From: an uncultured Chloroflexia bacterium
GTDB lineage: Bacteria; Chloroflexota; Dehalococcoidia; Dehalococcoidales; RBG-16-60-22
Assembly (NCBI GenBank): GCA_963727315.1
Contig: CAVSFE010000002.1
Span: 50,289 to 114,288 of the forward strand
Direction of reading: 5' to 3'
Length of the DNA: 64,000 nt
Positions within the stretch are counted from its first letter, which is position 1, and each line of letters opens with the position of its first letter. Shown one piece after another: positions 1 to 32,445 of the stretch. Below the pieces are notes generated by a model. That model was not told where the DNA came from. It worked only from the letters and a program-made list of their open reading frames with translations, and ran no database searches. The translations under genes and the position numbers were made by a program.

Positions 1-1758
1 CCTGACATCGTGTAGATCTGTCCAGGCCTGGTTCATCTGGTACTCTATCTTGACAGAGACCAGCGTATTCGTGTTTTGATTATAGATTGGGGTGATGCTG
101 AAACTATTGAGTTCCAGCCCGGGTACCTCGGGGGCCGCGGTTGGTGCTGGCGATGGGTTCGACGGGTTGACCTCGAGTACCCCCTCCAGACCGCCAATGC
201 TGATTCTGTGCTCTCCGGCGGTATTGGTGGTGAAGCTGAAGCTCGCCGTCATGCTGCTGCCTCCGTCGAGGATTACTTCTCGTGTTTCCAGAATGACATC
301 ATCCATAGATAGCGTTAGCGGATAAGTCCCTGCCAGATCGCCGGTATTTTTAATTAACACGCTGATATTGGCTTTCTCTCCGGTATTGATGGAACCCGGG
401 TCTATCTCGAGTTCGCTGAACGTGAAAGCCGCCGAGGCTGGCTGTTTCTTCACAACGAAGGTCGCTGCCAGACCCCCGATGCTGACCCGGTGTTCGCCGA
501 TAGTGTCCGGGACAATATTAAAAACAATCGTTTCGCTTTCACCGCCATTTAAAGTTATGGTCCTTTCTTGCACGACAGAGTTATCCAGCATCAGACTGGC
601 GAGATAAGTTCCGGTAAGGTCACCCTGGTTTCTTACCTCGATACTGGCAGTTACGGTCTCGCCGGTATTGACCTCATCCGGTGTTAAAACGAAATTCGTG
701 GTGATTAGACTGGCGGGACGGTTATGGGCCATAAGGGCATAGGTCGAAAGGTGATTTATCAGTATGGAAACAGTGCCGGCATCCGTATCGACAGTGCCGC
801 CCAGGTCCGTCCAGGTCATGGCAGCGGGGTCCCATAATGCAATATAGAGATTGTTTGCGGAAACATCGGACGGAAGCTCCGCATTGGAATATCTGAAAAC
901 AAGATTAGCCGACCCGTTAAAGGTAGCGCCACCCGGTTCAATCTCGTATAATTGACTGATCAATACAGAGCCGTAATTGGCGGCCCGATTTTCATCTATC
1001 GGTGCGATATTCAGGCTGGTCAATGCCCGGCCGTATTTGTTCCTGACGATAGTGCCTTTAGCTATACGAAGCTCTACCTGTAAATCGGTATCCGCAGCGA
1101 TTATATCGTCAAGCATCTGCCCGTCGTTATCAGTGAGTCCGCGTAGATTGGTGGTCCCGCCCGCTACGCCGCCTCCACCGCCGCCTCCACCGCCACCTAT
1201 ATCATTTCCTCCAGATGGAGGAGGGGCCGGGGTAGTAGCTGAAATATCAATGGTAACGTTAATAGCACTTACCGGAACGGACTGGCTGTCCACGTCCCCG
1301 ACGACAACGTTTGATAGCGTTAATGGACTGCTGCCCCCGGTGCTCCCGGCCGTCATCGTGATGACCGCGAATGTCCCCGCCTGGGCTACCGTCTGCCCGG
1401 GGCTGATAATCGCCCCAAAAACGCCAGTAACGGTACCGTCTACGTTATTTATCTCGCCACTATTGAAGTAGGTGCTGGCGCCGCTCTGGTTTAGCAAATT
1501 TCCTTCGGCGATACTTTCCATGGTGACTATAGCCGGGTTGAAGCTCAGGTCAAACTGTATACCGGCGATGGCGTTGTTGGGCACGACGCTGATGCCGATG
1601 GTGAACTGTTCTCCCGGGTCGATGGCACCGGCCGGGACTGAAACGCTGACCACAGCGTTACCTGAGGCGGTAGCTACGCCGGCGAGAAGCATCACCAGAG
1701 AAATGACCAGGAAGATAGTCAGCGTTCTCAAATATCTGGAAACATCTTTACTTCTCAT
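1..1758 (-). CDS. Secreted cohesin-domain surface protein with Pro/Gly linker and two CARDB/Ig-like repeats (3' end runs off window; absent from ORF track)
   Basis: Manual translation from ATG at 1758: MRSKDVSRYLRTLTIFLVISLVMLLAGVATASG (signal peptide), cohesin-like GEQFTIGISVVPNNAIAGIQFDLSFNP...EGNLLNQ, PAPPPSGG/poly-Gly linker, then repeats GETVTASIEVRNQGDLTG and GEKANISVLIKNTGDLAG; open to base 1. Confidence 0.85.
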   Translation of the reverse strand, partial: MRSKDVSRYLRTLTIFLVISLVMLLAGVATASGNAVVSVSVPAGAIDPGEQFTIGISVVPNNAIAGIQFDLSFNPAIVTMESIAEGNLLNQSGASTYFNSGEINNVDGTVTGVFGAIISPGQTVAQAGTFAVITMTAGSTGGSSPLTLSNVVVGDVDSQSVPVSAINVTIDISATTPAPPPSGGNDIGGGGGGGGGGVAGGTTNLRGLTDNDGQMLDDIIAADTDLQVELRIAKGTIVRNKYGRALTSLNIAPIDENRAANYGSVLISQLYEIEPGGATFNGSANLVFRYSNAELPSDVSANNLYIALWDPAAMTWTDLGGTVDTDAGTVSILINHLSTYALMAHNRPASLITTNFVLTPDEVNTGETVTASIEVRNQGDLTGTYLASLMLDNSVVQERTITLNGGESETIVFNIVPDTIGEHRVSIGGLAATFVVKKQPASAAFTFSELEIDPGSINTGEKANISVLIKNTGDLAGTYPLTLSMDDVILETREVILDGGSSMTASFSFTTNTAGEHRISIGGLEGVLEVNPSNPSPAPTAAPEVPGLELNSFSITPIYNQNTNTLVSVKIEYQMNQAWTDLHDVR

Positions 1759-1767
1759 TTTCGGTTC

Positions 1768-2727
1768 CTAACCCGTCCAGTTCTGTCCGATTAGAATGAC
1801 ATCAAGTACGTTAACCGTTCCATTTTCGTTGATATCTTCGGTAATCCATCCATTCGTGCCGGTCGCATTCCAGTGCTGGGTGACCGTTATTATGTCAAGT
1901 ACATTCACTTTTCCGTCGCCGTTGACATCCGTCTGGTAGACATTATTTACGGTTATGGTAATGTCCTCGGTATCATTCGCGCTGTTAGCGGATACTACGA
2001 AGTGCACGTTGTGATAGCTCCCTGCCTGACGGTAAGATGGCATCCAGGTGAATGTCTTCGTGGCGGGGTTAAAAGTTGCTCCGCTGGGCATACCGGAAGC
2101 TGAGTATGTCAAGGGGTCTCCGTCGGGGTCGTTAGCCGATACGGTGAAGGTAAGTGTTGTCCCTTCGTTGACCGTCTTATTGCCGATGTTGGCAAGTACT
2201 GGCGGTCGGTCCACATTAACGGTGCCGTTATTCACGGTTACAGGTACGGAATTGCCTGCCACGTCCCCGACGACTACATACGATAGCGTTAATGGGCAAC
2301 TGCCCCCGGCGCTCCCGGCCCTCATCGTGATGACCGCGAATGTCCCCGCCTGGGCTACCGTCTGCCCCGGACTTATTATCACCCCGAACACTCCGGTGAT
2401 GGTCCCGGCTATGTTATCTATCTGGCCGGCATTAAAGTAGGTGCTGGCGCCGCCCTGGTTCAGCAAATTTCCTTCCGTAACGTTGTCTACGGTGATAATA
2501 TTGGGATTATAACTCAGGTTAAATTGCATACCGGCGATGGCATTATTGGGCGTGACGTTTATGCCGATGGTGCACTGTTGCCCGGGGACAATGGCGCCGG
2601 CCGGGACTGAAACGCTGACAACGGCGTTGCCCGCGGCGTAGGCTAGACCGGGGAGAAGAATCACCAGAGAAATGACCAGAAAGATAGCCAGTGTTCTTAA
2701 ATATCTTAAGACATTTTTACTTCTCAT
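1768..2727 (-). CDS. Secreted cohesin + Ig/cadherin-like + dockerin protein (adaptor-scaffoldin-like)
   Basis: Signal peptide; cohesin-like AGMQFNLSYNP; Ig-like NEGTTLTFTVSANDPDGDPLTYSASGMPSGATF; C-terminal duplicated Ca-loop DVNGDGKVNVLD...DINENGTVNVLD. Confidence 0.85.
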   Translation of the reverse strand: MRSKNVLRYLRTLAIFLVISLVILLPGLAYAAGNAVVSVSVPAGAIVPGQQCTIGINVTPNNAIAGMQFNLSYNPNIITVDNVTEGNLLNQGGASTYFNAGQIDNIAGTITGVFGVIISPGQTVAQAGTFAVITMRAGSAGGSCPLTLSYVVVGDVAGNSVPVTVNNGTVNVDRPPVLANIGNKTVNEGTTLTFTVSANDPDGDPLTYSASGMPSGATFNPATKTFTWMPSYRQAGSYHNVHFVVSANSANDTEDITITVNNVYQTDVNGDGKVNVLDIITVTQHWNATGTNGWITEDINENGTVNVLDVILIGQNWTG

Positions 2728-2736: not shown

Positions 2737-5457
2737 CTATACTGTCCAGTTCCGTACGACGGAAGCGATATCCAGTATGTTGATAATGCCGTCCTTATTG
2801 ACGTCTTCCGTAATCCAGCCATTCGCGCCGGTTTCACCCCAATGCTGGGCGATACTTATTATGTCAAGTATATTGACTATTCCATCACCGTTGATATCGG
2901 GATCTCCGATTGGCTGGTCGGAGGCTCCCGAACCGACTGGAACCAGCAGATACTTAGGGTCGTGCCAGACGAAGGGGGGTATCCCAACAAACCAGAAATA
3001 GTTGTAAGTATTGTTGTTGTTCAGCGTCAGTTTCCAAAGACCAGCTACAGGGTGGGTTATGGTGCTTTGCCCGGATGTGTTAAATAGGAAATTATGGTCT
3101 ACATTGTTAGGATCGGTGAGCCTACCGCTCATCGCCAGAATACCGTTACCTTGGAAGGTGAAATTGTCAGTTCCCGCAGGCACGTAGAAATACTGGACAT
3201 TGGCTCTATATTCCCAAGGCGCATTATAACCTACAGCATCACTCTCAACATTAAGAAGATTACCATGACCATCAGCAATTATTGAAGCAGGTCTATTGGG
3301 AACATCAATATAGACCTGTCTGTTATTTTCTGGCACGTTAGAAGTAGCATGGAGAATATAGTTGCCCGCGATGGTAGCCGTAAAGTTCACGGAAATCCAA
3401 TCCGTGACGCCATCATGGGAGTAAGTCCCGACGAGCATGTTGCCCGGGTCATACATTTGTAGATAGACATTCGGGGTCCCCTCGTATTCCACGGTCTTAA
3501 TTCTTATGGTGATGGTCTCGTTGCCGTTTGATGGTATAAGGATGTCGCGGTTGTTGCCAAAGAGCGGTGTAACGCTCGCTGTCACGTTGTCGCCGAGGGC
3601 CTGCAAGCTGATTGTCCTGGGGTTCACCCAGTCAAGACCCCAGCCGTCGCTGGCAAATTCTGTCACTCCCTCATTCAGCCAGTCCTCCGTCTCTCCCACA
3701 CTCGGCGCATTAAAGTCCTGAAGGGCATCGACTTGGCTCTTGGAATAACCCCTGCTATACAACTCTTCCCGCAGGGCATCCTCAACATAGTAATAGGCTA
3801 CCATATAGGTGTCTCGAATTTTACAGTTGAATGTGTAGAAGTCCTGAAGGTCAGAGTTGCTTAGATTATCAATCCCAATATTGTGCCATTTCCAAACATA
3901 ACGTGTGTAGTATTCCAGTTGCCTAATTCTTGCAAGAATAGCATTGTCACCAGCAGCTAGAGTCTCGGCAGACTGCAAATCTCTATACATCTTACCTAGA
4001 GAATCATTGTCGGTATTACGCTGCTCATACCAATGCTGCATGACCGTAGAAGCAGCCCCGAAAGCCTTGGTATAAAAGTCATCTAATAGGTCACTAATGC
4101 TGAGGCTTGAATCCCAATACAGTTTTGTAAGGAGGTAATACATGAGACCACCAGAACCACCCCAGCTGTCTGTACCTTCGCCAACAACAGAGACTATCCC
4201 CTTGTTGTAGCACCACTTGACGAAATTGAGGCAGTCCCAGCCTACTCCCATCATCTGACTGGTTGGAGCGTCCTCTTCGGGATACCACAGGTCTAGGTAG
4301 TCATAGACCCCGACTTTGACGCCCTTTCCAAGAAATTCATCCACCCTCTGGGTATCGGTGAGGTTGCTACAGTTGAAGCCGCGGGTTATAACGACGAAGA
4401 CATTGGGTTTGAGAGAGAATGATGGCACGGCAGATGAACCTTCATAGGCTAGGACGCCCACATATTTCCCGGGGTAATCCCCGCTTATGTTGTTGGCCAC
4501 ATAATTCACCAAGCCAAAAATGTTGTCGGTGATGTCCTGAACATCCGTCAATGGATAGAACCCGTCCATGCCGCCATCATTAGGAGATATTGGCACGACC
4601 GCAGCCCATAAGTCGTCGTTAAACTGATAACTCTTTCCTACTATGTTAGCTAAGTAATACCTTGCATAATCAACTGCCATAGCTCTTACACCAGCATTGC
4701 TACCGTCAAACTGCCAGTATGATATACCTCGTCCATTCTGCAAGAAATAACTAGGATGTGCATTATAGTAGGCTGTCTTTTGTTCGTCTGTCATCGAATA
4801 CCAACCGACGGCATGGTTAAGAATTTCACCGTAGCTATGGGATGTTGAGTAGGTCTCTGCTCCGTAGCCGCGATTATGCGTTATCCAGTTTTTAAAGGCA
4901 GTTGACCCGCCAGGGATATAAGTATCTTGCGGGCTCAAGCCTCCATATTGGCGCCAAGCGAAATCGGGTTCAACAATGATGTCTGTGCTTTCTAAAGAAG
5001 CCAAGCTATCAGGAACCACCGTCCAGGCGCTATTTTTAAAGAACCATCGCACACCAAGCTTTTCATCAAGCAGGTAATAAGCCCCCCATCTTACCGCTAT
5101 AGCCGTCTTGCCTGTAATTGTAATCCCATTACTATCAATAACAAGACGAAAAGCCTCATCGCCATGATTGGCCAACATGGCAGGATTAACCGTTAGATTG
5201 ATAGATGGGGGTGTTGGAGTAGATGTAACCACCGTCCATGAACGTCCCGACATTTTCTCTAGGTATGTCTCAAGCTCACTGGCTGCCGTTTCCAGGAAGG
5301 GATTATCAACGTCTTCTTGGGCAGGATTATAATAAATGGTATTGATGGCGTCCCAGCCCACCCCATTATCAGCTCTGGCAGTAGGAATTTTCATAAATGA
5401 TGGGCTAATTGTGAATAACATCATAAATATAATGAACAGACTGGCTATCTGCCTCAT
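2737..5457 (-). CDS. Secreted glycoside-hydrolase-like protein (GH20/GH67 N-terminal-like + DUF4838-like) with C-terminal dockerin
   Basis: Likely start ATG 5457 (AAGGAG RBS, signal peptide MRQIASLFIIFMMLF); AASELETYLEKMSG...EAFRL...GAYYLLDEKLGVRWF...PDFAWR; C-terminal DINGDGIVNILD...DVNKDGIINILD. Confidence 0.75.
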   Translation of the reverse strand: MRQIASLFIIFMMLFTISPSFMKIPTARADNGVGWDAINTIYYNPAQEDVDNPFLETAASELETYLEKMSGRSWTVVTSTPTPPSINLTVNPAMLANHGDEAFRLVIDSNGITITGKTAIAVRWGAYYLLDEKLGVRWFFKNSAWTVVPDSLASLESTDIIVEPDFAWRQYGGLSPQDTYIPGGSTAFKNWITHNRGYGAETYSTSHSYGEILNHAVGWYSMTDEQKTAYYNAHPSYFLQNGRGISYWQFDGSNAGVRAMAVDYARYYLANIVGKSYQFNDDLWAAVVPISPNDGGMDGFYPLTDVQDITDNIFGLVNYVANNISGDYPGKYVGVLAYEGSSAVPSFSLKPNVFVVITRGFNCSNLTDTQRVDEFLGKGVKVGVYDYLDLWYPEEDAPTSQMMGVGWDCLNFVKWCYNKGIVSVVGEGTDSWGGSGGLMYYLLTKLYWDSSLSISDLLDDFYTKAFGAASTVMQHWYEQRNTDNDSLGKMYRDLQSAETLAAGDNAILARIRQLEYYTRYVWKWHNIGIDNLSNSDLQDFYTFNCKIRDTYMVAYYYVEDALREELYSRGYSKSQVDALQDFNAPSVGETEDWLNEGVTEFASDGWGLDWVNPRTISLQALGDNVTASVTPLFGNNRDILIPSNGNETITIRIKTVEYEGTPNVYLQMYDPGNMLVGTYSHDGVTDWISVNFTATIAGNYILHATSNVPENNRQVYIDVPNRPASIIADGHGNLLNVESDAVGYNAPWEYRANVQYFYVPAGTDNFTFQGNGILAMSGRLTDPNNVDHNFLFNTSGQSTITHPVAGLWKLTLNNNNTYNYFWFVGIPPFVWHDPKYLLVPVGSGASDQPIGDPDINGDGIVNILDIISIAQHWGETGANGWITEDVNKDGIINILDIASVVRNWTV

Positions 5458-5835
5458 GAATAGCCATTCTCCTTGTAGGATCGTGTTTGATTTCACCTTT
5501 ATGGCTTGATTATCCTCGGGCATATGCTCCCTTTTAACAAAGTGAACTTCATACAATCAAATCCATCATTGACAAAGATCATGACGGAACCCATAAAACT
5601 AATATAACATCAGATGGAACTTAAAAAAATAGCCTATTGGTAACAGAGAAAGGAGTCATATCAAGATGCATTGTGTGCTAATTTGAGTTAGAATGGAGGA
5701 TGGTAAAGGCCTAATTAGATTGAGTAAGAAGAGAGGTATTTATGGTTATTCATATAGACGTTAGTCCTAGTTCTCTCTAATTACCGGGATAGTTTACCAT
5801 TAAAAATTTCTGCCGGATATAGTATATACTACGTT

Positions 5836-6228
5836 ATGAAAAAATTACAAATAAGAACCCTTTTATGGGTTTTATGGACGTTGATTCTCTTTGTTGTGTT
5901 ATTTTTGCCTATTAGGGAGAGTCTCATTCCCAAATGGGGAGGTTTCCCATACTGGGACAAAGTTATTCATTTCGGTCTTTTTGCCGTTACTGGTTTCGTC
6001 AGCGTTTTTGGAGCTAGCTTCCTCTCGTCGTTCGTAGCCAGACTACTGTTCGGGCTCGTCTTCGGTTTAGCGTTGGCGGCGGTAACGGAACTTGGGCAAT
6101 ATTTAATACCTTCTCGCGACCCTGACCTTTATGACTTTTTCGCTGACCTCGCTGGACTTTTTTTCGGCTTACTAGTTTATACTGTATTTTTCTTTTATAA
6201 TAAACTCCATTCCAGGCCGGGACTATAA
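5836..6228 (+). CDS. VanZ-family membrane protein
   Basis: DKVIHFGLFA and TELGQYLIPSR...DFFADLAG motifs; hydrophobic helices. Confidence 0.85.
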   Translation: MKKLQIRTLLWVLWTLILFVVLFLPIRESLIPKWGGFPYWDKVIHFGLFAVTGFVSVFGASFLSSFVARLLFGLVFGLALAAVTELGQYLIPSRDPDLYDFFADLAGLFFGLLVYTVFFFYNKLHSRPGL

Positions 6229-6329: not shown

Positions 6330-6385
6330 TTCTAACCGTATGTTAACCTTGATTATACCCATTCCTAACGAGAAATACCTAGAAT
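6330..6385 (+). promoter_or_regulatory. Four 11-bp-period repeats plus -10 box upstream of the ACP operon
   Basis: TTCTAAC 6330, TGTTAAC 6341, ATTATAC 6352, TCCTAAC 6363, then 10 bp, then TAGAAT 6380-6385. Confidence 0.7.
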
Positions 6386-6481: not shown

Positions 6482-6739
6482 ATGGACACGAGAAGCCTGA
6501 TTAAGACTTTCGTCATTAATAATTTTCTAAAGGGAGATAAATCAAACAGTCTCCGTGACGATAGTCTCTTTATCGAGGAAGAAATTATCGACTCCGTGGG
6601 AGTTTTGGAGCTTGTAGCTTTCATTGAAGAAACATTTGATTTCAGAGTAGAGGATGAAGAATTGGTCCCGGAGAACCTTGATTCAATTGACAGATTGGTG
6701 ACTTATGTGGAGTCAAAATTGGCCGCTCTTGGGTCGTAA
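6482..6739 (+). CDS. Acyl/aminoacyl carrier protein
   Basis: Acidic 85 aa with IIDSVGVLELVAFIEETF phosphopantetheine site and ELVPENLDSI. Confidence 0.9.
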   Translation: MDTRSLIKTFVINNFLKGDKSNSLRDDSLFIEEEIIDSVGVLELVAFIEETFDFRVEDEELVPENLDSIDRLVTYVESKLAALGS

Positions 6740-12251: not shown

Positions 12252-12253
12252 AC

Positions 12254-23328: not shown

Positions 23329-23421
23329 GAAGGACCCCCTTCCCGGTAAATCCCTTCTGGCGGAAATGTGCACGGACTGGATATCCGCCACCCCGTGCAC
23401 ATTTCACTAACGAGAGCAAAT

Positions 23422-24454: not shown

Positions 24455-24474
24455 CTCTACTCCCTGCCAGCCTT

Positions 24475-25469: not shown

Positions 25470-25526
25470 ATCATAATATGGCTTTTGTTGGTTATTGGTA
25501 AACGAAGCGTTAGAAAGTGGTAGGAA
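25470..25526 (-). promoter_or_regulatory. Degenerate four-repeat array plus -10 upstream of kinase-PqqD-peptide operon
   Basis: Plus-strand GTTGGTT 25487, GTAAACG 25498, GTTAGAA 25509, GTAGGAA 25520 (11-bp period); minus-strand TATGAT 25475-25470, 11 bp from the last repeat. Confidence 0.55.
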
Positions 25527-25643: not shown

Positions 25644-25913
25644 ATGTTACTTCGTGATGAGATAATGCCGATGCTGACCATAAAGGATGTCGCCCGTCTC
25701 TTGCACATCCACGTCAATACCGCCCGGCGCTGGAGCGACCAGGGCATATTGAAATCTTATCGTATTACCCGGCGTGGCGACCGCCGGTTCCGGCAGGAAG
25801 ATATCGCCCGTTTTCTGGCGGAATACAACGATTTCAATACCAAGAAAGAACCCGACCGGGAGACCACCCAGGGTTCCGCCAACGACAAGGGTAAGATAGT
25901 TATCGGGCACTAA
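25644..25913 (+). CDS. Small excisionase/MerR-like helix-turn-helix DNA-binding protein
   Basis: MLTIKDVARLLHIHVNTARRWSDQGILKSYRI...GDRRFRQEDI; GAGGAG RBS. Confidence 0.88.
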   Translation: MLLRDEIMPMLTIKDVARLLHIHVNTARRWSDQGILKSYRITRRGDRRFRQEDIARFLAEYNDFNTKKEPDRETTQGSANDKGKIVIGH

Positions 25914-25964: not shown

Positions 25965-26771
25965 CTAATACTGTATCAGACTGCCTTCCGCCTTGGCGCG
26001 CCTCAGAGCTTTTCTAAAAACGAGGAAGGCCAGAGGCGTTAACACCAGAGCGAATCCCAGCAGGATCAGGATATCGTTGCGAACTTCGAATATCGAGTAT
26101 CCCTTAAGCATGGCCAGTCTCATGGCATCCAGGGAGTAGGTCATCGGCAGGACATGGGATAACGGCGTGAGCCAGCCAGGGAGCACTGATATAGGATAGT
26201 ACACGCCAGCCAGGAGCGTTGATACCCCTCCGAATATCCAGGCAATCGGGTCGCCTTTTTTTACCACCAGCACAATGGCCGCCGAAAGGATGCCGATGCC
26301 GCTGAAGCTGGCCACGGACAGTATTAGGACGATGAAGGCCGTCAAGAAATTCGCCTGACTTATATTGAATCCGAAGACCAGTCCCCCGAAAAGAAAATAT
26401 GCCACCACGTTCAACGTGGTCAGCAAATAGTCCCACAACGACGATGAGAATAGTATAGCGCTCAACCGGGTCGGGCTGAGGAGCATAATCTCCAGCGTGC
26501 CGGTCATCTGACCGTCGCGGATGCTCGAGGCGAAGCTGGAGAGGGACAAACCCAGGTAACCGTTAAAAGCCAGGCCGATGAGGACAAAGGAGAAATAATC
26601 GCCCCCGTATTGCTCAAGCTGGGGCACCAGGGCGTTGCCGAAAAGCCGCGAGAGGAAATAGAAGGAAGCTACCCCGAAGAAGATGCCGAGTATCTCGAGC
26701 AAAAAGGCGATGCGATAGCTCAGCGCGATCGAAAAATCACGTTTTAAGAAAGCCGTCGCGGTAGACATCAC
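25965..26771 (-). CDS. ABC-2 type exporter permease
   Basis: Six hydrophobic segments; GTLEIMLLSP; GVYYPISVLPGWL...LPMTY. Confidence 0.9.
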   Translation of the reverse strand: MMSTATAFLKRDFSIALSYRIAFLLEILGIFFGVASFYFLSRLFGNALVPQLEQYGGDYFSFVLIGLAFNGYLGLSLSSFASSIRDGQMTGTLEIMLLSPTRLSAILFSSSLWDYLLTTLNVVAYFLFGGLVFGFNISQANFLTAFIVLILSVASFSGIGILSAAIVLVVKKGDPIAWIFGGVSTLLAGVYYPISVLPGWLTPLSHVLPMTYSLDAMRLAMLKGYSIFEVRNDILILLGFALVLTPLAFLVFRKALRRAKAEGSLIQY

Positions 26772-27778
26772 TCCTTTTCCTTCTGTCCGCTTTTCAGGGC
26801 ATTAGTGAATATTTCTTCGAGCGGCAGCTCTTTCAATTCACAGTTATATACCTCGGCGCCGTTGTTGATTATTATCTGCAGCAGGCGGGGCAGCACCTGC
26901 TCACGGTTGGTTATCTTCAGCTCCAGCGTCGGTCCCTCTTTGCCGTTCCTGGTCAGGGTGCAGCCGAGCACGCCTTCGACCTGTTCGAGCTGGGCGAGGA
27001 CGGCCTCGGGGAAATTCCTCACCTGCAGGCGGCATTCTTCGTGGGTCTGGAAGACGGAGCGCAGTTCTTTCACCGAACCGAGGGCAATTACCCGCCCGCG
27101 GTCCATGATTGCCAGTCGGTCACAGAGCTGTTCCGCCTCGGTGAGGTTGTGGGTGGCCAGCACTATCGTCTTTTTTTCGACCACCACCTTTTCCTTGAGG
27201 AAGGAACGGACCGACTGCGCGCTGACAGGGTCGAGGCTTCGGGTGGGTTCATCCACGAAAAGGACCTTCGGTTCACTGAGCAGGCCCCGGATAATCGCCA
27301 TTTTTTGCCGCATCCCGGTGGAGTAGTTCTGGAACCTGATGTCGGCTTCTTTGTCCAGCCCCACCACGTTTAACAGCTCATTAATATGCTGGCGACTCTG
27401 CTGCCGCGGAAGGTGATAAAGGGACGCGTAAAATTGCAGGTTCTCACGGCCGGTGAGGCGCCAGTAAAAACTCCTCTCCTCGGCGTTGATTAACCCGACT
27501 AGGTTTTTTACGGCCTGTTCTTTTTTCAGGATGTCGTTACCGTAGACGCTGGCTGTGCCTGAAGTGGGCAACACGAGACAGCATAGCAGTTTGATTAAAG
27601 TGGTCTTACCGGCGCCGTTAGGCCCCAGCAGGCCGAAAAATTCGCCCGGCTGTATATCCAGGGTCACTTTTTCTACAGCCGTGACCCATTGTTTCTTTCT
27701 GAAGGGTAACAGTTCGCGGTAGCCAGAGCTACGGGCGAATCTTTTCGTCAATTCGTTGGTACTGATGGCCGTGGTCAC
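26768..27778 (-). CDS. ABC exporter ATP-binding subunit
   Basis: GPNGAGKTT, YSTGMRQK, VDEPT; likely GTG start 27778 overlapping peptidase stop (GTGA). Confidence 0.92.
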   Translation of the reverse strand: MTTAISTNELTKRFARSSGYRELLPFRKKQWVTAVEKVTLDIQPGEFFGLLGPNGAGKTTLIKLLCCLVLPTSGTASVYGNDILKKEQAVKNLVGLINAEERSFYWRLTGRENLQFYASLYHLPRQQSRQHINELLNVVGLDKEADIRFQNYSTGMRQKMAIIRGLLSEPKVLFVDEPTRSLDPVSAQSVRSFLKEKVVVEKKTIVLATHNLTEAEQLCDRLAIMDRGRVIALGSVKELRSVFQTHEECRLQVRNFPEAVLAQLEQVEGVLGCTLTRNGKEGPTLELKITNREQVLPRLLQIIINNGAEVYNCELKELPLEEIFTNALKSGQKEKE

Positions 27779-28281
27779 TTTATCCGCCTCCCCCCACAAA
27801 GCCACCCGAGTCTATCGATATATCTTACTACCCTTATCTGGTTGGGATAACGGCCCCGAGCGAACCAGGCGGTCAGCCGGCCGTAAACGCGTCCTGACCA
27901 TCCATTGAGCTTTAGCTTTCTCTCGTTTTCCTCGATTAAAATGACCCGGCCCATGACCTGCGTGTCGTTTACCGGCGGGTCGATATTTTTCATAGCGTCG
28001 CCTTTGGTTATCAACACTTTACCGTCCTTCCGGCTGTTTATTTTTACCAGTCGGTGGGCCGTCAAAGAGCCGTCCGGCCGCCGATAGAAAATAATGTCCC
28101 CTATGCCCACCGAACGGCCGTTCCGCGCCTCGACAATTATTACATCCCCGTTTTTTATGAAGGGGTACATGCTGTTGCCGTGGGCCTGAAAGCGCAGCCG
28201 GGCGCCGCGGTCGAGCACTTCTTGGCTCAACTCTAGAAAATCCGCCTTGTCGGTATTCAATTCTTTGTCCGGCATTTTCAC
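27775..28281 (-). CDS. S24/S26-family (signal peptidase I-like) peptidase without N-terminal membrane anchor
   Basis: GNSMYPFIKNGD catalytic Ser, GDIIFY, AHRLV, ITKGD, VMGRV. Confidence 0.85.
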   Translation of the reverse strand: MKMPDKELNTDKADFLELSQEVLDRGARLRFQAHGNSMYPFIKNGDVIIVEARNGRSVGIGDIIFYRRPDGSLTAHRLVKINSRKDGKVLITKGDAMKNIDPPVNDTQVMGRVILIEENERKLKLNGWSGRVYGRLTAWFARGRYPNQIRVVRYIDRLGWLCGGRRIK

Positions 28282-28365: not shown

Positions 28366-28421
28366 AGTTTACCCGCTGCACGTTAGTTATCAGTAAACAA
28401 ATGGTGAGAATTTGGTTATAA
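28366..28421 (-). promoter_or_regulatory. Four-repeat array plus -10 upstream of peptidase-ABC operon
   Basis: Plus-strand GTTAGTT 28382, GTAAACA 28393, GTGAGAA 28404, GTTATAA 28415; minus-strand TAAACT 28371-28366, 10 bp from the last repeat. Confidence 0.6.
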
Positions 28422-28476: not shown

Positions 28477-28779
28477 TTAGCGAAGCCCACCACCCGGCCG
28501 GCCGTCAGCGTCTCTGTCTTCCCGCCGTCTTTCGCCCAGCCTCTGTATTTGCCTTATCAGTACGTAGATAGCGAATATGGTAATAAGGAGAGAGACAGCG
28601 ATTTCGATCCACAGGATAACGGAGTTGCCCTCGACGAAATAGACCGCTCCGTTTACGGCGATGAGAATCATCTGGATTAGCCACGCTATCGCCAGAGCAA
28701 TGAGTAGCATCTGGGCCGAAAGCACCGCTAACGCCGACTTCAGCCTACGGCGCATAAGCGGCTGGCTATCTTTTATCAT
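28477..28779 (-). CDS. Small two-TM hypothetical membrane protein
   Basis: Two hydrophobic helices and charged tail QRLGERRREDR; likely start ATG 28779. Confidence 0.65.
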   Translation of the reverse strand: MIKDSQPLMRRRLKSALAVLSAQMLLIALAIAWLIQMILIAVNGAVYFVEGNSVILWIEIAVSLLITIFAIYVLIRQIQRLGERRREDRDADGRPGGGLR

Positions 28780-28909
28780 AGAATACCTTAATATAGGATA
28801 ATACAACAGAATAGCATAAATTACAATATGTTCTATCTGTTTAAGGGAAAAATAACGAGGGTCTAACACCCCCTCTACCGCTCTGTTACCGGAAAATAGA
28901 CTTGAAAAT

Positions 28910-30268
28910 TTAAGTCAATAATACGTCGGGCGTTTTTTGTCCCGTAATCCGGTGGCCGATGCCGTCGTATAAAAATCCCGCCCGTATCATGTCTTCGGGA
29001 TTGTACAGATTGCGACTGTCCACCATGACCGGCCTTGTCATTAGAGAGGCTATCTTTCGTAAATTGAGTTCTTTAAACTCGTCCCATTCCGTGACCAGGA
29101 TCAGGGCGTCGCTGCCGCTGGCGACTTTGTAGGCGTCCTCGCAATACGTTACCCCGGGCATTATTCTGGCCGCCTCCTCCATGGCCACGGGGTCGTAGGC
29201 TTTAATCCGGCAGCCGTTTTCTTCGAGCAGCCTTACCACTTCGACGGAACGCGCCTCCAGCATATCGTTGGAGCCCGGTTTGAAGGCAAGCCCCAGTATG
29301 CCGATGGTCTTGTCCTGGAGCGAGCCCACCATCGAGCGTAGTTTCTCGACTACCAAACGCGGCTGGCGCTGGTTGACCCTCTGGACGGCGTGCATTAGCG
29401 GGAAAGGCACTCGATAGCTCTCCGCCATATATATGAGTCCCCGCACATCCTTGGGCAGGGAGCTGCCCCCCCACCCCAGTCCAGCGTCCATATCACCGTT
29501 ACCGTGGCGCGGCTCCAGACTGGCAATTTCGGCCACTTTCTTGACATCCGCGCCGCACTCGTCGCAAAGCAGCGCTATTTCGTTGATGAAACTGATCCTG
29601 GTGGCCTGCAACGTATTGGAAACGTACTTCGACATCTCCGCCGTTTTGTTGTCGCAGGTGATTAAGGGCGAGTTTAGACTGGCGTAGAGCCTCACCACCG
29701 CATCGATATCATTCTGGTCGGCACCCCCTACCACGACCCGGCTGGGGTTCATAAAATCGCTTACCGCCATGCCTTCCCTCAGAAATTCGGGATTGGAGAT
29801 TACCGCAAAATGATGCCCGTTCCGACTGTTCTGGGCGATTATCTCGGCGACCATGTCGGCCGTGCCCACCGGCACGGTGCTTTTCAGGACAACGATAAGC
29901 GGCCCGCTGGCGGTCTCGGCGATGCTCCGTGTCGCGTTGCGGACCCATTTTAAATCGGGTTTCCCGTTACGCCCTGAGGGCGTGCCCACGGCGATAAAGG
30001 CAAAGTCGGCGCCCCGCAACCCCCCGTTATAGCTGCCGGCGACATTGATATTGCCCTTGGCCCGGTTGCGTTTCCAGAGCTGGGGCAGGTCCGGCTCGTT
30101 GACAGGCAGGCGCCCGCTCTCCAGGGCGGATAGCTTTTTCGGGTCGATTTCTATCATCGTGACCTTGTTGCCGAGTTCCGCCAGACAGGCGGCGGTAACG
30201 AGGCACGCGTAGCCCGCCCCGACGATACCGATATGCTTCGTATCTTTGGGTGACATCATGGTCATCAT
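28910..30268 (-). CDS. UDP-glucose/GDP-mannose dehydrogenase-family protein with catalytic Cys replaced by Ser
   Basis: GAGYAC, FIAVGTP, KSTVPVGT, SNPEFLREG, GWGGSSLPKD (canonical GGSC), GLAFKP. Confidence 0.88.
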   Translation of the reverse strand: MMTMMSPKDTKHIGIVGAGYACLVTAACLAELGNKVTMIEIDPKKLSALESGRLPVNEPDLPQLWKRNRAKGNINVAGSYNGGLRGADFAFIAVGTPSGRNGKPDLKWVRNATRSIAETASGPLIVVLKSTVPVGTADMVAEIIAQNSRNGHHFAVISNPEFLREGMAVSDFMNPSRVVVGGADQNDIDAVVRLYASLNSPLITCDNKTAEMSKYVSNTLQATRISFINEIALLCDECGADVKKVAEIASLEPRHGNGDMDAGLGWGGSSLPKDVRGLIYMAESYRVPFPLMHAVQRVNQRQPRLVVEKLRSMVGSLQDKTIGILGLAFKPGSNDMLEARSVEVVRLLEENGCRIKAYDPVAMEEAARIMPGVTYCEDAYKVASGSDALILVTEWDEFKELNLRKIASLMTRPVMVDSRNLYNPEDMIRAGFLYDGIGHRITGQKTPDVLLT

Positions 30269-30272
30269 ATAT

Positions 30273-30328
30273 AATTTATGCTTCCCAGGTTAGTACCCAG
30301 TTAGACGAGCGTAAGGATTAGGTTAGAA
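30273..30328 (-). promoter_or_regulatory. Proximal four-repeat array plus -10 for ugd-like gene (possibly leaderless)
   Basis: Plus-strand GTTAGTA 30289, GTTAGAC 30300, GTAAGGA 30311, GTTAGAA 30322; minus-strand TAAATT 30278-30273, 10 bp from the last repeat. Confidence 0.65.
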
Positions 30329-30408: not shown

Positions 30409-30464
30409 ATCATATTACGAATCTGTTAGAACAATGTCGGAGGTGAGTCAGAAAACGGTTAGAA
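30409..30464 (-). promoter_or_regulatory. Distal four-repeat array plus -10 for ugd-like gene
   Basis: Plus-strand GTTAGAA 30425, GTCGGAG 30436, GTCAGAA 30447, GTTAGAA 30458; minus-strand TATGAT 30414-30409, 10 bp from the last repeat. Confidence 0.8.
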
Positions 30465-30542
30465 TATCCGGATCATTGTCCGCCTGGGCCGGTGTGCCTT
30501 CGACTAACTCTGGCCAGCCCGCTAAAACTCCGAAATCGGCGG

Positions 30543-30626
30543 GTTAGAATAAAGTTAAAATTTCGTTAAAAAATGGTTAGAAACTGTCCGGCACTATTGA
30601 CTCTTGCTCCATGATTGTTCTATAAT
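30543..30626 (+). promoter_or_regulatory. Four-repeat array and sigma70-like promoter of the response regulator
   Basis: GTTAGAA 30543, GTTAAAA 30554, GTTAAAA 30565, GTTAGAA 30576; TTGACT 30597-18 bp-TATAAT 30621. Confidence 0.75.
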
Positions 30627-30803: not shown

Positions 30804-31520
30804 ATGAGAGAGAAAATACTGCTCATCGAAGATGACATTGAATTTATTAACCTGACCCGGACATGGTTGCATAACGCAGGGTATGAGGTCTTCACCGCTG
30901 GAGACGGCGTCGAGGGCATGCGCCGTGTCTTCAGCAATCGCCCCGATATTGTTTTGCTGGATGCCAATATACCCAAAATGGATGGATGGGAAGTCTGCCG
31001 CCGCATACGGGATATGAGCGACATCCCTGTCCTGATGGTGACGGTCAACGGCCAGAAATCAGACAAGCTCAAAGGATTCACCATGGGCGCCGATGATTAT
31101 CTCGCCAAGCCCGTTGATTTTCACGAACTGATCGCCAGGGTCCAGGCTATCCTGCGACGCAGCCGGTCGGGCACGCACGATAATAAGTCCAGCACCTTCA
31201 ATAATGGCGATATCGAGGTTGATTGGGGCAGCCGCCAGGTCTGGGTCAGAGGACAGCGGGTTAAGCTCTCGCCCACCGAGTTTAAAATTATGTCCTGCCT
31301 CATCAAGAGCCGCGGCTGGATCGTCACCCACGAGCAACTCCTGGAGAAAGCCTGGGGCCCGAACTATATCGGAGATAAATCGTTCGTTAAATTATACATC
31401 AGGTATCTGCGCCAGAAGATTGAGCAGGACCCGCATAAACCGCAAATAATCATGACCGAGCGCGGCGTGGGCTACTATTTTGCCATGCAGAACGAGGAAT
31501 CCGGCAACTTGGGAGGTTAA
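30804..31520 (+). CDS. OmpR/PhoB-family DNA-binding response regulator
   Basis: IEDD, VLLDANIPKMDG, GADDYLAKP, LSPTEF, YIRYLRQKIE, TERGVGY. Confidence 0.95.
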   Translation: MREKILLIEDDIEFINLTRTWLHNAGYEVFTAGDGVEGMRRVFSNRPDIVLLDANIPKMDGWEVCRRIRDMSDIPVLMVTVNGQKSDKLKGFTMGADDYLAKPVDFHELIARVQAILRRSRSGTHDNKSSTFNNGDIEVDWGSRQVWVRGQRVKLSPTEFKIMSCLIKSRGWIVTHEQLLEKAWGPNYIGDKSFVKLYIRYLRQKIEQDPHKPQIIMTERGVGYYFAMQNEESGNLGG

Positions 31521-31524
31521 TTTG

Positions 31525-32445
31525 GTGCAAAAACGCGCCTTACCCCTGCATCAAATGGCAATCGACCGGTCTGCTGACCGGGAAGATATCTCGCTTAAAA
31601 TCCTCGCCGGGGCCGATAAAAACATGCCGGCATCGAGCCTGTTCCAAGATAAAGATAGACTGCCGGTAATGTATGATGCCGCCCCCGGCGCCCGGACGGC
31701 GAACCCGCCTAAAACAGACACTAATACCATTTCGATCATATGGCACGAGCTCATCTCGCCGCTGACAGTGATTAAGGGGTACGCTTCGACTCTCCTGCAA
31801 CTTAACGATGCCATCACCGAGAAACAAAAGGAGGAGTATCTGCGGGGCATAGATTCCGCCAGTAACAGGGTAATTCGACTGCTGGAAAACCTTCGCGATA
31901 TTACCCGGCTGGAGGAGACCGATGCCCTGACCATGCAGCGGATTCGCCCGCTCGACCTGCTGCGGCAGACGGCCTCGGAAATGCAGAACCAGACCAGGCA
32001 GCACATTATTAAAATCCTCCCCTGCCCGCGCCTCCCCCTGGTCACCGCCGACCCCGAAAAGCTCGAGATAGTCGTCAATAATCTCCTCGTTAATGCCATT
32101 AAATATTCGCCGCAGGGCGGTGATATCGAAATCGGGCTCAGTCTGGCCCGCAGCGGACCTGAGCTGAAAAGCATCTCCGAAGACGCGCCTCTATTAAGGC
32201 TGCCCTGCCTGGTCGTGAGCGTTGCCGATACCGGCATCGGCCTGCCTGAGGACGAGCTGGAGCAGATTTTCGAAAAGTTCTACCGGGTAAAAAACAGACT
32301 GTCGCAGGTCACCCCGGGGGCCGGCCTCGGCCTGTATATCTGCAGGATCATTATCGAGGCCCACGGCGGCCGTATCTGGGCCAGGAACAGGCTTTCGGGC
32401 GGCAGCGTCTTTAATTTCTCCCTGCCCCTGGAAAAGATGCCCTGA
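31525..32445 (+). CDS. Cytoplasmic histidine kinase (HisKA + HATPase)
   Basis: HELISPLTVIKGY H-box, NLLVNAIKYS, DTGIG, FEKFYRV, GAGLGL; no TM; start 31522 or 31525 after GGGAGG. Confidence 0.9.
   Translation: MQKRALPLHQMAIDRSADREDISLKILAGADKNMPASSLFQDKDRLPVMYDAAPGARTANPPKTDTNTISIIWHELISPLTVIKGYASTLLQLNDAITEKQKEEYLRGIDSASNRVIRLLENLRDITRLEETDALTMQRIRPLDLLRQTASEMQNQTRQHIIKILPCPRLPLVTADPEKLEIVVNNLLVNAIKYSPQGGDIEIGLSLARSGPELKSISEDAPLLRLPCLVVSVADTGIGLPEDELEQIFEKFYRVKNRLSQVTPGAGLGLYICRIIIEAHGGRIWARNRLSGGSVFNFSLPLEKMP

Follow-up and report, generated by a model that had tools for sequence, protein, structure and literature searches.

A phased four-repeat promoter array in a surface-polysaccharide island of an uncultured Dehalococcoidales bacterium

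The stretch of DNA analysed here (the window, 64,000 nucleotides) comes from an uncultured Dehalococcoidales bacterium whose genome assembly is 1.95 Mb long, 92.6% complete and 55.7% G+C. The beginning of the window belongs to a surface-polysaccharide island of ~56 kb (Table 1). Its right-hand 33 kb fall inside the window, the left end being located ~23 kb upstream of the window and the right end at 33.3 kb. A preliminary description had placed the system at 1..32445; the genes are indeed present there, but the island is larger, with ~23 kb more upstream. Gene identities are based on Pfam and NCBIfam models, and operons were delimited from the output of a simple ORF finder labelled by BLAST, without a gene caller.

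Table 1. Genes and promoter arrays of the island portion contained in the window
Feature	Coordinates	Strand	Remarks
Cohesin scaffold protein	1..1758	-	full gene 696 aa; 3' end 332 nt before window
Cohesin, Ig and dockerin adaptor protein	1768..2727	-	Pfam
GH20b/DUF4838 enzyme with C-terminal dockerin	2737..5556	-	Pfam; dockerin matches cellulosomal dockerin chain
VanZ-like membrane protein	5836..6228	+	Pfam; no array upstream
Four-unit array, TTCTAAC orientation	6330..6370	+	heads ACP operon; -10-like TAGAAT 6380-6385; orthologous array in G005
Acyl carrier protein (ACP)	6482..6739	+	Pfam, NCBIfam
AMP-forming ligase	6769..8325	+	resembles exosortase-A-associated ligase TIGR03098, below cut-off (490 vs 592 bits)
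NadE-like amide synthetase	8340..9314	+	NF002048, above cut-off
WbuX-like N-acetyl-sugar amidotransferase	9364..10407	+	NCBIfam, below cut-off
Hexapeptide acetyltransferase, polysaccharide deacetylase, GNAT, GT4 glycosyltransferase	10521..14685	+	same operon direction; Pfam, NCBIfam
wzc, Wzc-type chain-length regulator and tyrosine autokinase	14781..17279	-	TIGR01007 above cut-off
Distal four-unit array	17353..17393	+	no -10 at fixed offset
Proximal four-unit array (17506-17546) and TATGAT (17556-17561)	17506..17561	+	heads response-regulator/HD-GYP operon
Response regulator with HD-GYP domain, candidate c-di-GMP phosphodiesterase	17614..18981	+	Pfam, NCBIfam
TviC-like epimerase and TviB-like UDP-N-acetylglucosamine 6-dehydrogenase	19024..21291	+	NCBIfam
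B12-binding radical-SAM gene with DUF4070	21339..22860	-	split by single frameshift near 21746
151-aa protein of no assigned family and treble-clef zinc-finger protein	22945..23751	-	Pfam; no array
31-aa precursor-like peptide	24035..24127	-	GGAGG ribosome-binding site, hairpin downstream; homologs in relatives
PqqD-family peptide-recognition protein	24185..24478	-	start overlaps upstream gene's stop by 4 nt
ScmC-family (PF27840) P-loop protein	24475..25449	-	PEPCK/HPr-kinase-like predicted fold
Four-unit array (25486-25526) and TATGAT (25470-25475)	25470..25526	-	heads ScmC-PqqD-peptide operon
BldC/excisionase-like helix-turn-helix protein	25644..25913	+	divergent from cassette; Pfam, NCBIfam
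ABC-2 permease and DrrA-like ATPase	25965..27805	-	Pfam, NCBIfam
S24/S26 peptidase	27775..28281	-	archaeal-type signal peptidase I model above cut-off; membrane segment not evident
Four-unit array (28381-28421) and TAAACT (28366-28371)	28366..28421	-	heads peptidase-ABC operon
Small membrane protein, no known family	28477..28869	-	adjoins cohesin scaffold gene in G005, L022
UDP-glucose 6-dehydrogenase	28910..30268	-	NCBIfam
Four-unit array (30288-30328) and TAAATT (30273-30278)	30273..30328	-	weight-matrix scan
Four-unit array (30424-30464) and TATGAT (30409-30414)	30409..30464	-	form conserved across genera beside regulator
Distal four-unit array, strongest (46.6 bits)	30542..30582	-	no -10 at fixed offset
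OmpR/PhoB-family response regulator, candidate array-binding factor	30804..31520	+	Pfam, NCBIfam
Histidine kinase (HisKA and HATPase)	31480..32445	+	no membrane domain or recognised sensor domain
Undecaprenyl-diphosphate phosphatase (UppP)	32471..33325	-	right edge of island; no array

The exopolysaccharide genes, the ACP/ligase/amide-synthetase cassette and the OmpR-type pair announced in the preliminary description are confirmed by Pfam and NCBIfam models. Its "three degenerate enzymes", on the other hand, could not be identified: a single broken gene was found, that of the B12-binding radical-SAM protein, the orthologs of which are intact single ORFs of 505-506 residues. The polysaccharide would be produced with a Wzx flippase, a priming sugar-phosphate transferase, the Wzc-type tyrosine kinase and many sugar-modifying enzymes. 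The ACP-linked AMP-ligase, an AsnB-type amidotransferase, GT4 transferases, the tyrosine autokinase and the deacetylase resemble models associated with exosortase in XrtA/PEP-CTERM exopolysaccharide loci, but all these matches stay below cut-off, and no exosortase (PF09721) was found in the 92.6%-complete genome.

The cohesin scaffold protein harbors a signal peptide, a cohesin, CARDB/Ig domains and a C-terminal membrane helix. As in cellulosome-type assemblies, an anchored scaffold, a cohesin-dockerin adaptor and a dockerin-bearing, glycosidase-like enzyme are predicted from the genes. The set is, however, minimal and closed, since the two cohesins and two dockerins of the whole genome all lie in this operon; the host belongs to the Dehalococcoidales, the operon is embedded in a polysaccharide island, and the enzyme is of the GH20b/DUF4838 type and not a cellulase.

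The peptide cassette had been read as an RRE, a kinase, a peptidase and an ABC transporter next to a small peptide, and this composition stands: a PqqD-family protein, a ScmC-family P-loop protein, an S24/S26 peptidase, an ABC-2 pair and a 31-residue ORF. The precursor displays a conserved 21-residue leader (YxxP) followed by a short core. Over 10 sequences, residues M1, K3, E4, Y6, P9, S13, E14, L16, L21, G26 and S27 are invariant, while the cores are variable and contain Gly, Trp or Cys. The modelled ScmC-family protein (pLDDT 84) finds its best Foldseek matches in ATP-PEPCK and HPr kinase. A predicted complex between PqqD and the peptide scores 0.57, against 0.02 for the best of three controls, with contacts agreeing at 98% or more between runs and a partner pLDDT of at least 60. 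Among solved complexes, 116 of 157 attain the mark used in this test, as against 2 of 215 mismatches; passes at 0.60 or under comprise only 18 of the 157 solved complexes but both passing mismatches. As leader-PqqD complexes have already been solved, the pass may also reflect likeness to them. The model suggests, weakly, that the PqqD-family protein binds the peptide. The chemistry of the cassette is putative: PqqD would hold the leader, the kinase-like ScmC-family protein would modify the precursor together with the single NTP_transf_5 protein of the island, the soluble peptidase would cut off the leader, and the ABC-2 pump would export the product.

Two known peptide systems share parts of this layout. 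In SynChlorMet (SCM) clusters, ScmC accompanies the PqqD-like ScmD and two radical-SAM/SPASM proteins (TIGR04248-04251), and here too a ScmC-family protein adjoins a PqqD-family one; in other genera of the family, the cassette adds a radical-SAM/SPASM maturase and precursors with Cys-rich cores. In contrast, no SPASM gene was found in the cassette or island of the window, both proteins score far below the ScmC and ScmD equivalog cut-offs (21.7/125 and 28.4/100 bits), and the present cassette adds a peptidase, an ABC-2 exporter and an NTP_transf_5 partner under a polysaccharide regulon. It looks reduced, having no SPASM maturase, a core of 10 residues and a frameshifted B12 radical-SAM neighbour. 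With the pseudomycoidin lasso system, it shares a kinase of HPr-kinase/PEPCK fold, a PqqD-type leader binder, an uncharacterised nucleotidyltransferase, an ABC exporter and the YxxP leader. The nucleotidyltransferase of that system, PsmN, is presumably a PF14907 member. In contrast to lasso systems, no lasso cyclase is found here, the island AsnB scoring best as a glutamine amidotransferase, and no B2 protease (PF13471) was found in the source genome. The pseudomycoidin report describes the PsmK (HPr-kinase-like)/PsmN (NTP-transferase) pair as phosphorylating the C-terminal serine and then adding a hexose (PMC6993621), and a Butyrivibrio study lists GT2, EpsH and WalR-type regulators in lasso clusters (PMC7533575).

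The promoters of the island carry a common element. The motif GGTTAGAA occurs in seven exact copies in the window against 1.8 expected, and none of 100 shuffles contains as many as seven. All seven copies are intergenic, in three regions, and when read in register they belong to arrays of four 11-bp units; the repeat array of 11-bp period noticed earlier is therefore real and consists of four direct repeats nGTTAGAAnnn. A four-unit weight matrix was trained on six window arrays, so that nine of the 15 arrays that it finds genome-wide at spacing 11 (>20 bits) are independent of its training; the same scan at control spacings of 8, 9, 10 and 12 to 16 yields 1, 0, 0, 2, 0, 0, 0 and 0 arrays. Eleven of the 15 are located in the island, within C2:29470-80870 (51 kb, 2.6% of the genome), and the motif is far denser here than in the rest of the genome. 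Among the intergenic regions of the island, 8 of 22 score 22-47 bits, control spacings reaching at most 15.8. The window arrays start at 6330, 17353, 17506, 25486, 28381, 30288, 30424 and 30542, the weakest being the two peptide-cassette promoters, 25486 (22.0 bits) and 28381 (23.4 bits). The preliminary description had given the array to most promoters between 6.3 and 30.6 kb; the arrays head the polysaccharide, ACP/ligase, HD-GYP and UDP-glucose dehydrogenase operons and, in the peptide cassette, each of its two operons. Array sequences vary among promoters and yet are kept at each orthologous promoter across genera.

All 15 arrays have their downstream ORF on the strand to which they point, and those near wzc are oriented away from it. 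A -10-like TAnnnT begins exactly 9 nt past the array in 10 of the 15 genomic arrays and in 32 of 44 arrays at the loci of relatives, where no other offset exceeds six; none is seen at this or an adjacent offset for 17353, 30542 and C2:653305. Ending 9 nt before the -10-like hexamer, the repeats take the place of a -35 box. The operators of PhoB (pho boxes) and of WalR/YycF are built alike: two or four direct repeats of ~7 bp recur every 11 bp, stand in for the -35 box ~10 bp ahead of the -10, and are recognised by a winged-helix response regulator whose gene lies close by. To our knowledge, the GTTAGAA repeat matches no described consensus. Compared with PhoB and WalR, the regulator at 30804 is below every NCBIfam equivalog cut-off (best RpaB, MtrA and YycF, ~195 bits vs 300-340), it would control a polysaccharide island together with a peptide cassette, and its kinase has neither sensor nor membrane domain.

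The distribution of the element points to this regulator. GTTAGAA-N26-GTTAGAA is present in 11 of 24 genomes of the same family, whereas the 16 genomes sampled from the order's other families have none. At 9 of 11 loci this array, the strongest in the relatives, abuts an ortholog of the regulator (68-93% identity) and is aimed at the UDP-glucose dehydrogenase or HD-GYP gene. Five of the six other matching genomes in a 200-genome sample of the class fall in one further family, in which a variant array is found ~80 bp from a kinase/OmpR operon at 3/3 loci. Judged by these neighbourhoods, the array is most likely the operator to which the OmpR-type protein encoded at 30804 binds, in a PhoB-box-like arrangement. 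With a profile trained on arrays of the window and its relatives, 9 of 10 matches in G005 lie inside the syntenic island, and 8 of 11 in G058, a genome outside the training set, on the contig carrying both the regulator and ScmC. The HD-GYP gene is the first after the arrays in G010, G011, G014 and G019, and is preceded by an array also in G058. We infer both the binding protein and the direction of regulation: the cytoplasmic kinase would phosphorylate the regulator, which would bind the four repeats as two tandem dimers and, in the manner of PhoB on its own boxes, recruit RNA polymerase. Autoregulation is not evident, as every array between the UDP-glucose dehydrogenase and regulator genes points away from the latter.

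Another candidate reader is the BldC/excisionase-like protein, whose molecules would occupy the four repeats in a head-to-tail row while the OmpR-type regulator acts elsewhere or indirectly. Streptomyces BldC forms cooperative head-to-tail multimers on runs of direct repeats, and the BldC-like gene is divergent from ScmC across the array-bearing region in the window, L019, L021, L022, G005 and G008. Its close orthologs (at least 73% identity) are present in 10 of the 41 genomes of the family, nine of which also have the regulator ortholog, so the two are inseparable by presence inside the family. This reading is nonetheless improbable: the strongest and most numerous arrays adjoin the OmpR gene, BldC-like paralogs occur in 32 of 41 genomes mostly without arrays, and in the second family, where the kinase/OmpR pair stands at the array, none of five genomes has a BldC-like ortholog above 37% identity. 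It is more improbable still, and already disfavoured, that the repeats are relics of duplicated promoter DNA or an effect of A+T-rich composition. The proximal array at 17506..17561 shares 84% identity with the copy at 30409-30470, and the copies at 17500-17561, 30409-30470 and C3:184317 are at least 84% alike over ~60 nt, spacers included, as duplication would give; but the signal depends on a spacing of 11 bp, the distance to the -10 is constant, the AC positions recurring at each 11-bp step show no variation among 40 aligned arrays, and the arrays differ from promoter to promoter while each is conserved across genera. A reversed control pattern gives one match in 41 genomes and matches in 5 of 201.

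With the regulator at 30804 as the likely reader, the whole is best explained, and probably, as a regulator-driven island in which polysaccharide operons and the peptide cassette are under its arrays and the cohesin trio is excluded. The regulon would comprise the polysaccharide genes, the UDP-glucose dehydrogenase, the HD-GYP response regulator (probable c-di-GMP turnover), a genus-specific ACP/ligase block for sugar decoration, surface Ig-domain proteins and the cassette. The preliminary description had proposed a single regulon including the cohesin-dockerin scaffold, in which the exported peptide may act as a signal or a glycan carrier. A common phased element of fixed geometry, at the same promoters in relatives, speaks in part for one regulon; the cohesin operon, VanZ and the zinc-finger/unknown/B12 radical-SAM genes are unarrayed, the latter having no array upstream in the intergenic scan of the island. 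Membership of the cohesin genes, upstream of which no array had been noticed before either, is not upheld: the region 5557-5835, between their operon and VanZ, scores 5.3 bits, within the range of the control spacings (at most 7.1), and five cohesin loci of other genera (74 kb) contain neither arrays nor homologs of island genes. The trio would be a self-contained, membrane-anchored enzyme tether, inside the island yet not wired to its arrays.

It is also conceivable, though rather unlikely, that independent modules under a general envelope regulator have been assembled into a mosaic island, the cassette peptide being an ordinary secreted antimicrobial or signal with no chemical link to the polysaccharide, and the cohesin and ACP blocks passengers that arrived through gene transfer. 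This overlaps with the regulator-driven island, for it accepts shared regulation and disputes functional coupling only. Synteny in relatives, proposed earlier as a check, gives a divided answer. A conserved core is formed by the regulator pair, the arrays and the HD-GYP, UDP-glucose dehydrogenase and polysaccharide genes. The ACP cassette, in contrast, is confined to one genus, orthologs of its ligase being found in 2 of 41 sampled family genomes (G000 and G005), and its G+C content is 37-44%, against 55.7% genome-wide; cohesin is present in 7 of 41 genomes; and the peptide cassette is absent from the island locus in G004 and G006, of the same genus, and lies unlinked on other contigs in G007, G010, G011, G014, G019 and G020. 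Modules are thus in part found independently in relatives, an outcome that the preliminary description had named as contrary to its own proposal. Arrays also precede a lipid kinase gene and a CobA gene outside the island, and the SPASM-bearing cassettes of other genera are like known peptide natural products. Against the mosaic, the cassette retains arrays at every location, even on contigs other than that of the regulator: they are found upstream of its operons in L019, L020, L022, G005, G007, G008, G011 and G013, on the ScmC side (25486) in all of these but G013 and on the peptidase side (28381) in L019/G003, L022 and G013. It also tracks the regulator, ScmC-like genes occurring in 10 of 11 genomes with a regulator ortholog and 2 of 30 without, counts that overstate independence since the genomes are kin; the ScmC matches of G014 and G019 show no more than 31% identity. 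The sole NTP_transf_5 gene of the genome ends the priming-transferase operon, while in relatives this family sits within the cassette, and in L023 a ScmC homolog is located between wzc and VanZ.

The source genome comprises 1.95 Mb in four contigs with 55.7% G+C, and the gene list of the preliminary description is borne out by Pfam and NCBIfam. The island starts outside the window, on its upstream side, ends on the right with UppP, and spans ~56 kb in total. It displays features of a Wzx/Wzy-type locus: a Wzx flippase (Polysacc_synt_3) and a polyprenyl-phosphate priming transferase (Bac_transf), both located upstream of the window, and a chain-length regulator with tyrosine kinase, which scores 127.5 against a cut-off of 108 on the TIGR01007 tyrosine autokinase model. 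The 445-aa ORF following AsnB, checked as a possible Wzy polymerase, has no Pfam or NCBIfam match. Rfam (gathering thresholds) and tRNA scans over the window returned no matches.

Features of the island and of related loci (window coordinates unless a contig or locus is named; the window is G000:C2:50289-114288, where G000 is the source genome; L003, L020 and L024 are extracted loci)
Feature	Position	Strand	Remarks
Upstream part of the island	C2:27035-50288		CARDB surface protein, methyltransferase, GT2, epimerases, GT4s; Wzx flippase, AsnB-type amidotransferase, GT4-Bac_transf priming transferase; DegT aminotransferase, NTP_transf_5 protein
Two cohesin proteins, two dockerin proteins		minus	Pfam, NCBIfam
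Cohesin scaffold	operon 1-5556		signal peptide, C-terminal membrane helix
Cohesin-Ig-dockerin adaptor	operon 1-5556		
GH20b/DUF4838 enzyme with dockerin	operon 1-5556		
wzc, UDP-glucose dehydrogenase, PqqD/P-loop/ABC/peptidase cassette		minus	Pfam, NCBIfam
ACP, AMP-ligase, NadE-like, WbuX-like, then sugar-modifying enzymes		plus	Pfam, NCBIfam
Response regulator with HD-GYP, then TviC/TviB-like genes		plus	Pfam, NCBIfam
Low-G+C stretch	4000-14000		DUF4838-dockerin gene, VanZ, ACP/ligase block
TTGATAA repeats	6253-6285		three repeats, 10-bp period
B12-binding radical-SAM/DUF4070 gene, frameshift	21700-21760		ORFs of 372 and 124 aa
BldC-like protein	25644		
Small membrane protein	28477-28869		
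OmpR-type regulator, followed by kinase	30804-31520 (regulator)	plus	Pfam, NCBIfam
UppP	32471-33325		right end of the island
62% G+C stretch	39744-41800		GCC-GCC-GAR-type repeats
Low-complexity ORF	39744-41405	plus	Ala/Glu/Lys-rich protein
ORF next to the 44-bp repeat	46339-47115	minus	
44-bp tandem repeat	47140-47350		2.2 copies at 92%, plus a degenerate third
Near-copy of the UDP-glucose dehydrogenase promoter	G000:C3:184317-184560		L003:3318-3561
PMT_2-family (GT-C) glycosyltransferase	L024:16911-18785		relative G005
Poly-Gly precursor genes	L020:1402-3159		relative G010, contig C134

The repeat array reported earlier in the island's promoters is real. The window contains seven copies of the word GGTTAGAA, where 1.8 would be expected and none of 100 shuffles reaches 7; all seven are intergenic, within three regions, and the whole genome has 22. 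Read in register, each site consists of four 11-bp units, the outer ones being nearest to GGTTAGAA. A weight matrix trained on six window arrays (four-unit score, threshold >20 bits) finds 15 arrays in the genome at spacing 11, nine of them outside the training set, as compared to 1, 0, 0, 2, 0, 0, 0 and 0 at the control spacings 8, 9, 10 and 12-16. Eleven of the 15 fall between C2:29470 and C2:80870. Among the 22 intergenic regions of the island, eight score 22-47 bits, and these are the ones with operon starts; control spacings do not exceed 15.8 bits.

Their geometry identifies the arrays as predicted promoter parts. Read as TTCTAAC, all 15 have the downstream ORF on the strand to which they point. 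In 10 of them the array is followed, at an offset of exactly 9 nt, by the start of a TAnnnT motif, and in two more at 10 nt; the 9-nt offset recurs in 32 of 44 arrays of relatives' loci, any other offset occurring six times at most. Alignment of 40 arrays yields the consensus TTCTAACC-nn-TTTCTAAC...TTCTAAC-n10-TATnAT, with the AC at the end of every unit fully or almost invariant, in 11-bp steps. The proximal repeat could be taken for a sigma-70 -35 box, a reading rejected because only 11 nt separate its TTCTAA from the -10 element. The repeat instead sits in the -35 position, as an activator site does. PhoB pho boxes show the same geometry, and WalR sites also have an 11-bp direct-repeat period. 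A riboswitch or leader RNA is rejected as well, the conserved block lying mostly upstream of the -10. Directly upstream of the ACP-operon array, the three TTGATAA repeats may form a second binding site.

In the source genome, arrays head the CARDB protein gene, the operons running from Wzx to AsnB, from the priming transferase to NTP_transf_5 and from ACP to GT4, the HD-GYP/TviC/TviB operon, the ScmC-PqqD-peptide and peptidase-ABC units, and UDP-glucose dehydrogenase. The four arrays found elsewhere precede genes for a 915-aa multi-Ig protein, a YegS-type lipid kinase and CobA, and a 41-aa hydrophobic ORF. The last is a promoter copy: the near-copy of the UDP-glucose dehydrogenase promoter outside the island spans the array, TATGAT and ~30 nt downstream. 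In relatives, a profile built from sequence only gives 10 matches in G005, a genome of the same genus (9 within its syntenic island), 11 in G058, which lay outside training (8 on the contig that carries regulator and ScmC together), and 9 in G008 (5 on such a contig). There, arrays precede UDP-glucose dehydrogenase, HD-GYP, priming transferase, glycosyltransferase, epimerase and ABC exporter genes. The predicted shared regulon is composed of polysaccharide synthesis, sugar decoration, c-di-GMP turnover and the peptide cassette, with the neighbouring OmpR-type pair as its probable controller. The earlier proposal of a single regulon is borne out in part: these modules share the array, the cohesin genes have none, and the island is a mosaic. 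As a kind of system, this would be a polysaccharide locus under two-component control whose operator resembles that of PhoB; its novelty lies in the sequence of the operator, in the conservation of this element throughout the clade and in the ScmC/PqqD peptide cassette under the same regulation.

The favoured reader of the array is the OmpR-type regulator, with Response_reg (98 bits) and Trans_reg_C (82 bits) domains above cut-off. A HisKA + HATPase_c kinase gene overlaps its 3' end; this kinase possesses neither membrane nor sensor domain, and the pair is kept in relatives. Of 24 genomes sampled within the family, 11 contain the pattern GTTAGAA-N26-GTTAGAA, versus 0 of 16 from the order's other families, a reversed control pattern giving one match in the same sample. 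In 9 of the 11 loci the array abuts an ortholog of the regulator (68-93% identity), pointing at UDP-glucose dehydrogenase or the HD-GYP response regulator. Orthologs are present in 11 of 41 family genomes (at least 69% identity, paralogs reaching at most 48%), and the exact pattern in 8 of these 11 versus 3 of the 30 others. Among 200 further genomes of the class, it occurs in six, five of them from one other Dehalococcoidia family, and the control in five. A rival binder is the BldC-like protein encoded within the island, whose presence pattern within the family almost equals that of the regulator, making the two inseparable there. In the second family, each of three loci has a variant array ~80 bp away from a kinase/OmpR operon, and a BldC-like ortholog was not found in the family's five genomes. 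Binding by the OmpR-type regulator is therefore the reading we infer. The variant array (loci L055, L056 and L057, from genomes G228, G211 and G116) reads GTTAGAA-taa-CGCTnGAG...TTAGAA...CGTTAGAA; it adjoins genes for a 516-aa kinase and an OmpR-type regulator, and points at an unannotated gene of ~540 aa.

Synteny among relatives, the named ones being uncultured Dehalococcoidales/Dehalococcoidaceae MAGs, bears out part of the proposed integration. G005 harbors the entire island in the same order, including the cohesin trio and the ACP block, and its arrays sit at the corresponding promoters. The core retained in other genera consists of the kinase-regulator pair, arrays, HD-GYP, UDP-glucose dehydrogenase and polysaccharide genes. 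Other modules are less constant. The ACP block looks like a recent addition that gained an array, because an ortholog of its ligase is found in only 2 of 41 genomes and its G+C is 37-44%. The peptide cassette is absent from the island locus in the relatives G004 and G006, and several genera have it on other contigs; it keeps its arrays nonetheless. It follows the regulator in 10 of 11 genomes with the ortholog versus 2 of 30 without, counts that are indicative only, given the kinship of the genomes and the weakness of two matches. Of note, G+C is 37-44% across the whole low-G+C stretch of the window, versus 55.7% for the genome, which suggests recent acquisition.

The peptide cassette is organized around a 31-aa precursor ORF, whose family shows an invariant leader (M1 K3 E4 Y6 P9 S13 E14 L16 L21), then G26 S27, followed by hypervariable, Gly/Trp/Cys-rich cores (n=10 homologs). 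NCBIfam has no family for any of the precursor peptides. The adjacent PqqD scores 57 bits in Pfam. A PqqD-peptide complex test gave weak support, with a score of 0.57 (best control 0.02), agreement of contacts between runs of at least 98% and partner pLDDT of at least 60; 116 of 157 solved complexes pass this mark, as do 2 of 215 mismatches, and the range up to 0.60 contains only 18 of the 157, plus both mismatches that passed. Similarity to leader-PqqD complexes already solved may account for the pass. PF27840 (ScmC) is precomputed on 120 of 120 listed homologs of the P-loop protein, including the window's own, and the Atlas also names it ScmC; on the NCBIfam equivalog TIGR04249 it reaches only 21.7 of 125 bits. 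Its model (pLDDT 84) best matches ATP-PEPCK (E 3e-8, TM 0.4-0.5), HPr kinase being matched too, and searches of PDB sequences give P-loop-level matches only. The peptidase is above cut-off on the archaeal-type signal peptidase I model, with no membrane segment seen. In other genera, a radical-SAM/SPASM maturase lies between PqqD and precursors ending NPSxGxCC. None stands between PqqD and peptide in the window's cassette, and tblastn with the maturase of the relative G011 gives only two distant matches in the source genome (24-28% identity), far from the island. The window's lineage has the shortest precursor core, no maturase and a frameshifted B12-rSAM gene nearby, and its copy of the cassette may be decaying. 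That gene, intact in G003, G005 and G006, carries one frameshift here, which could be a pseudogene mutation or an assembly error; over 21200-25600, the contigs of four DNA runs gave short pieces from relatives only, one of which, of low depth (2.7x), lacks one base at 21748, next to the frameshift. Downstream of ScmC-PqqD in the relative G010, a DUF362/ferredoxin-domain gene stands between two precursor genes whose poly-Gly cores are very long.

Among known systems, the cassette resembles SynChlorMet by its ScmC-family protein and, in other genera, by the SPASM layout with the maturase after PqqD; it differs in that the two radical-SAM/SPASM maturases are missing from the window's copy. A lasso-peptide cluster is rejected, since neither a cyclase nor a B2 protease turned up: the source genome gave no PF13471 match, and the single Asn-synthase-like gene identified within the island reaches 275 bits versus a lasso cyclase cut-off of 525, and passes as AsnB. 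An exosortase (XrtA/PEP-CTERM) system is likewise rejected, a search of the 92.6%-complete genome for PF09721 (EpsH/XrtA) having returned nothing. The closest precedent in function is the HPr-kinase/NTP-transferase pair of pseudomycoidin, which phosphorylates and then hexosylates that peptide (PMC6993621). The genome's single NTP_transf_5 gene lies in an array-headed operon, and relatives carry NTP_transf_5 inside the cassette; no useful solved relative of NTP_transf_5 was found. Owing to this precedent and placement, the idea of the preliminary description that the peptide may be a glycan carrier is kept as a minority reading. A more specific version strikes us as improbable: the product of ScmC, PqqD, NTP_transf_5, peptidase and ABC exporter would be not an antibiotic but an exported peptide, phosphorylated then glycosylated at the invariant Gly-Ser after the leader, and acting as a primer, an anchor or a cap for the island's polysaccharide, so that the matrix of these Dehalococcoidales would be a ribosomal-peptide-glycan conjugate under one OmpR-type switch with c-di-GMP turnover. 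Literature searches, with subscription journals and supplements outside their scope, returned no paper joining PqqD, HPr kinase and exopolysaccharide, nor radical SAM, PqqD, HPr kinase and SPASM; SynChlorMet/ScmC terms gave unrelated uses only, among the matches listed.

The cohesin-dockerin operon contains all cohesin (two) and dockerin (two) domains of the genome (Pfam Cohesin, Dockerin_1, above cut-off), with cohesin and type-I dockerin on separate partner proteins, and is predicted to be a closed, minimal tether. Its proposed membership in the regulon is not supported: the promoter region scores 5.3 bits, equal to controls, the G005 operon has no array there either, and five cohesin loci from other genera (74 kb in total) show neither array nor island homologs. 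That the enzyme might trim the polysaccharide is only a guess, from its family; no useful solved relative of DUF4838 was found, and no paper joining Dehalococcoidia, cohesin and dockerin was found within the same literature scope. In G005, the PMT_2-family glycosyltransferase gene adjoins the cohesin scaffold gene, as does a homolog of the small membrane protein, which again follows a cohesin gene in another extracted locus, L022.

To our knowledge, almost nothing is known of envelope regulation in wetland/peat Dehalococcoidales, which are uncultured. A precise putative operator (four GTTAGAA repeats, 9 nt, -10) with a candidate regulator makes the regulon readable directly from genomes in at least two families, and the analysis speaks against counting the cohesin-dockerin genes, however tempting, as part of it. 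It also places the uncharacterised ScmC family (PF27840), with PqqD and a hypervariable precursor, under the predicted switch of polysaccharide synthesis, and the long-standing question of the ScmC cassette's function therefore becomes approachable. The HPr-kinase/NTP-transferase precedent hints at the chemistry to look for, and the small size of the kinase-like protein, of PqqD and of the peptide suits in vitro assays.

Beyond UppP, the low-complexity ORF is encoded by the repeats of the 62% G+C stretch. Further on, the 44-bp tandem repeat is intergenic, lies upstream of a minus-strand ORF and has every unit opening with ATTCGTTTT; it may be another operator array.
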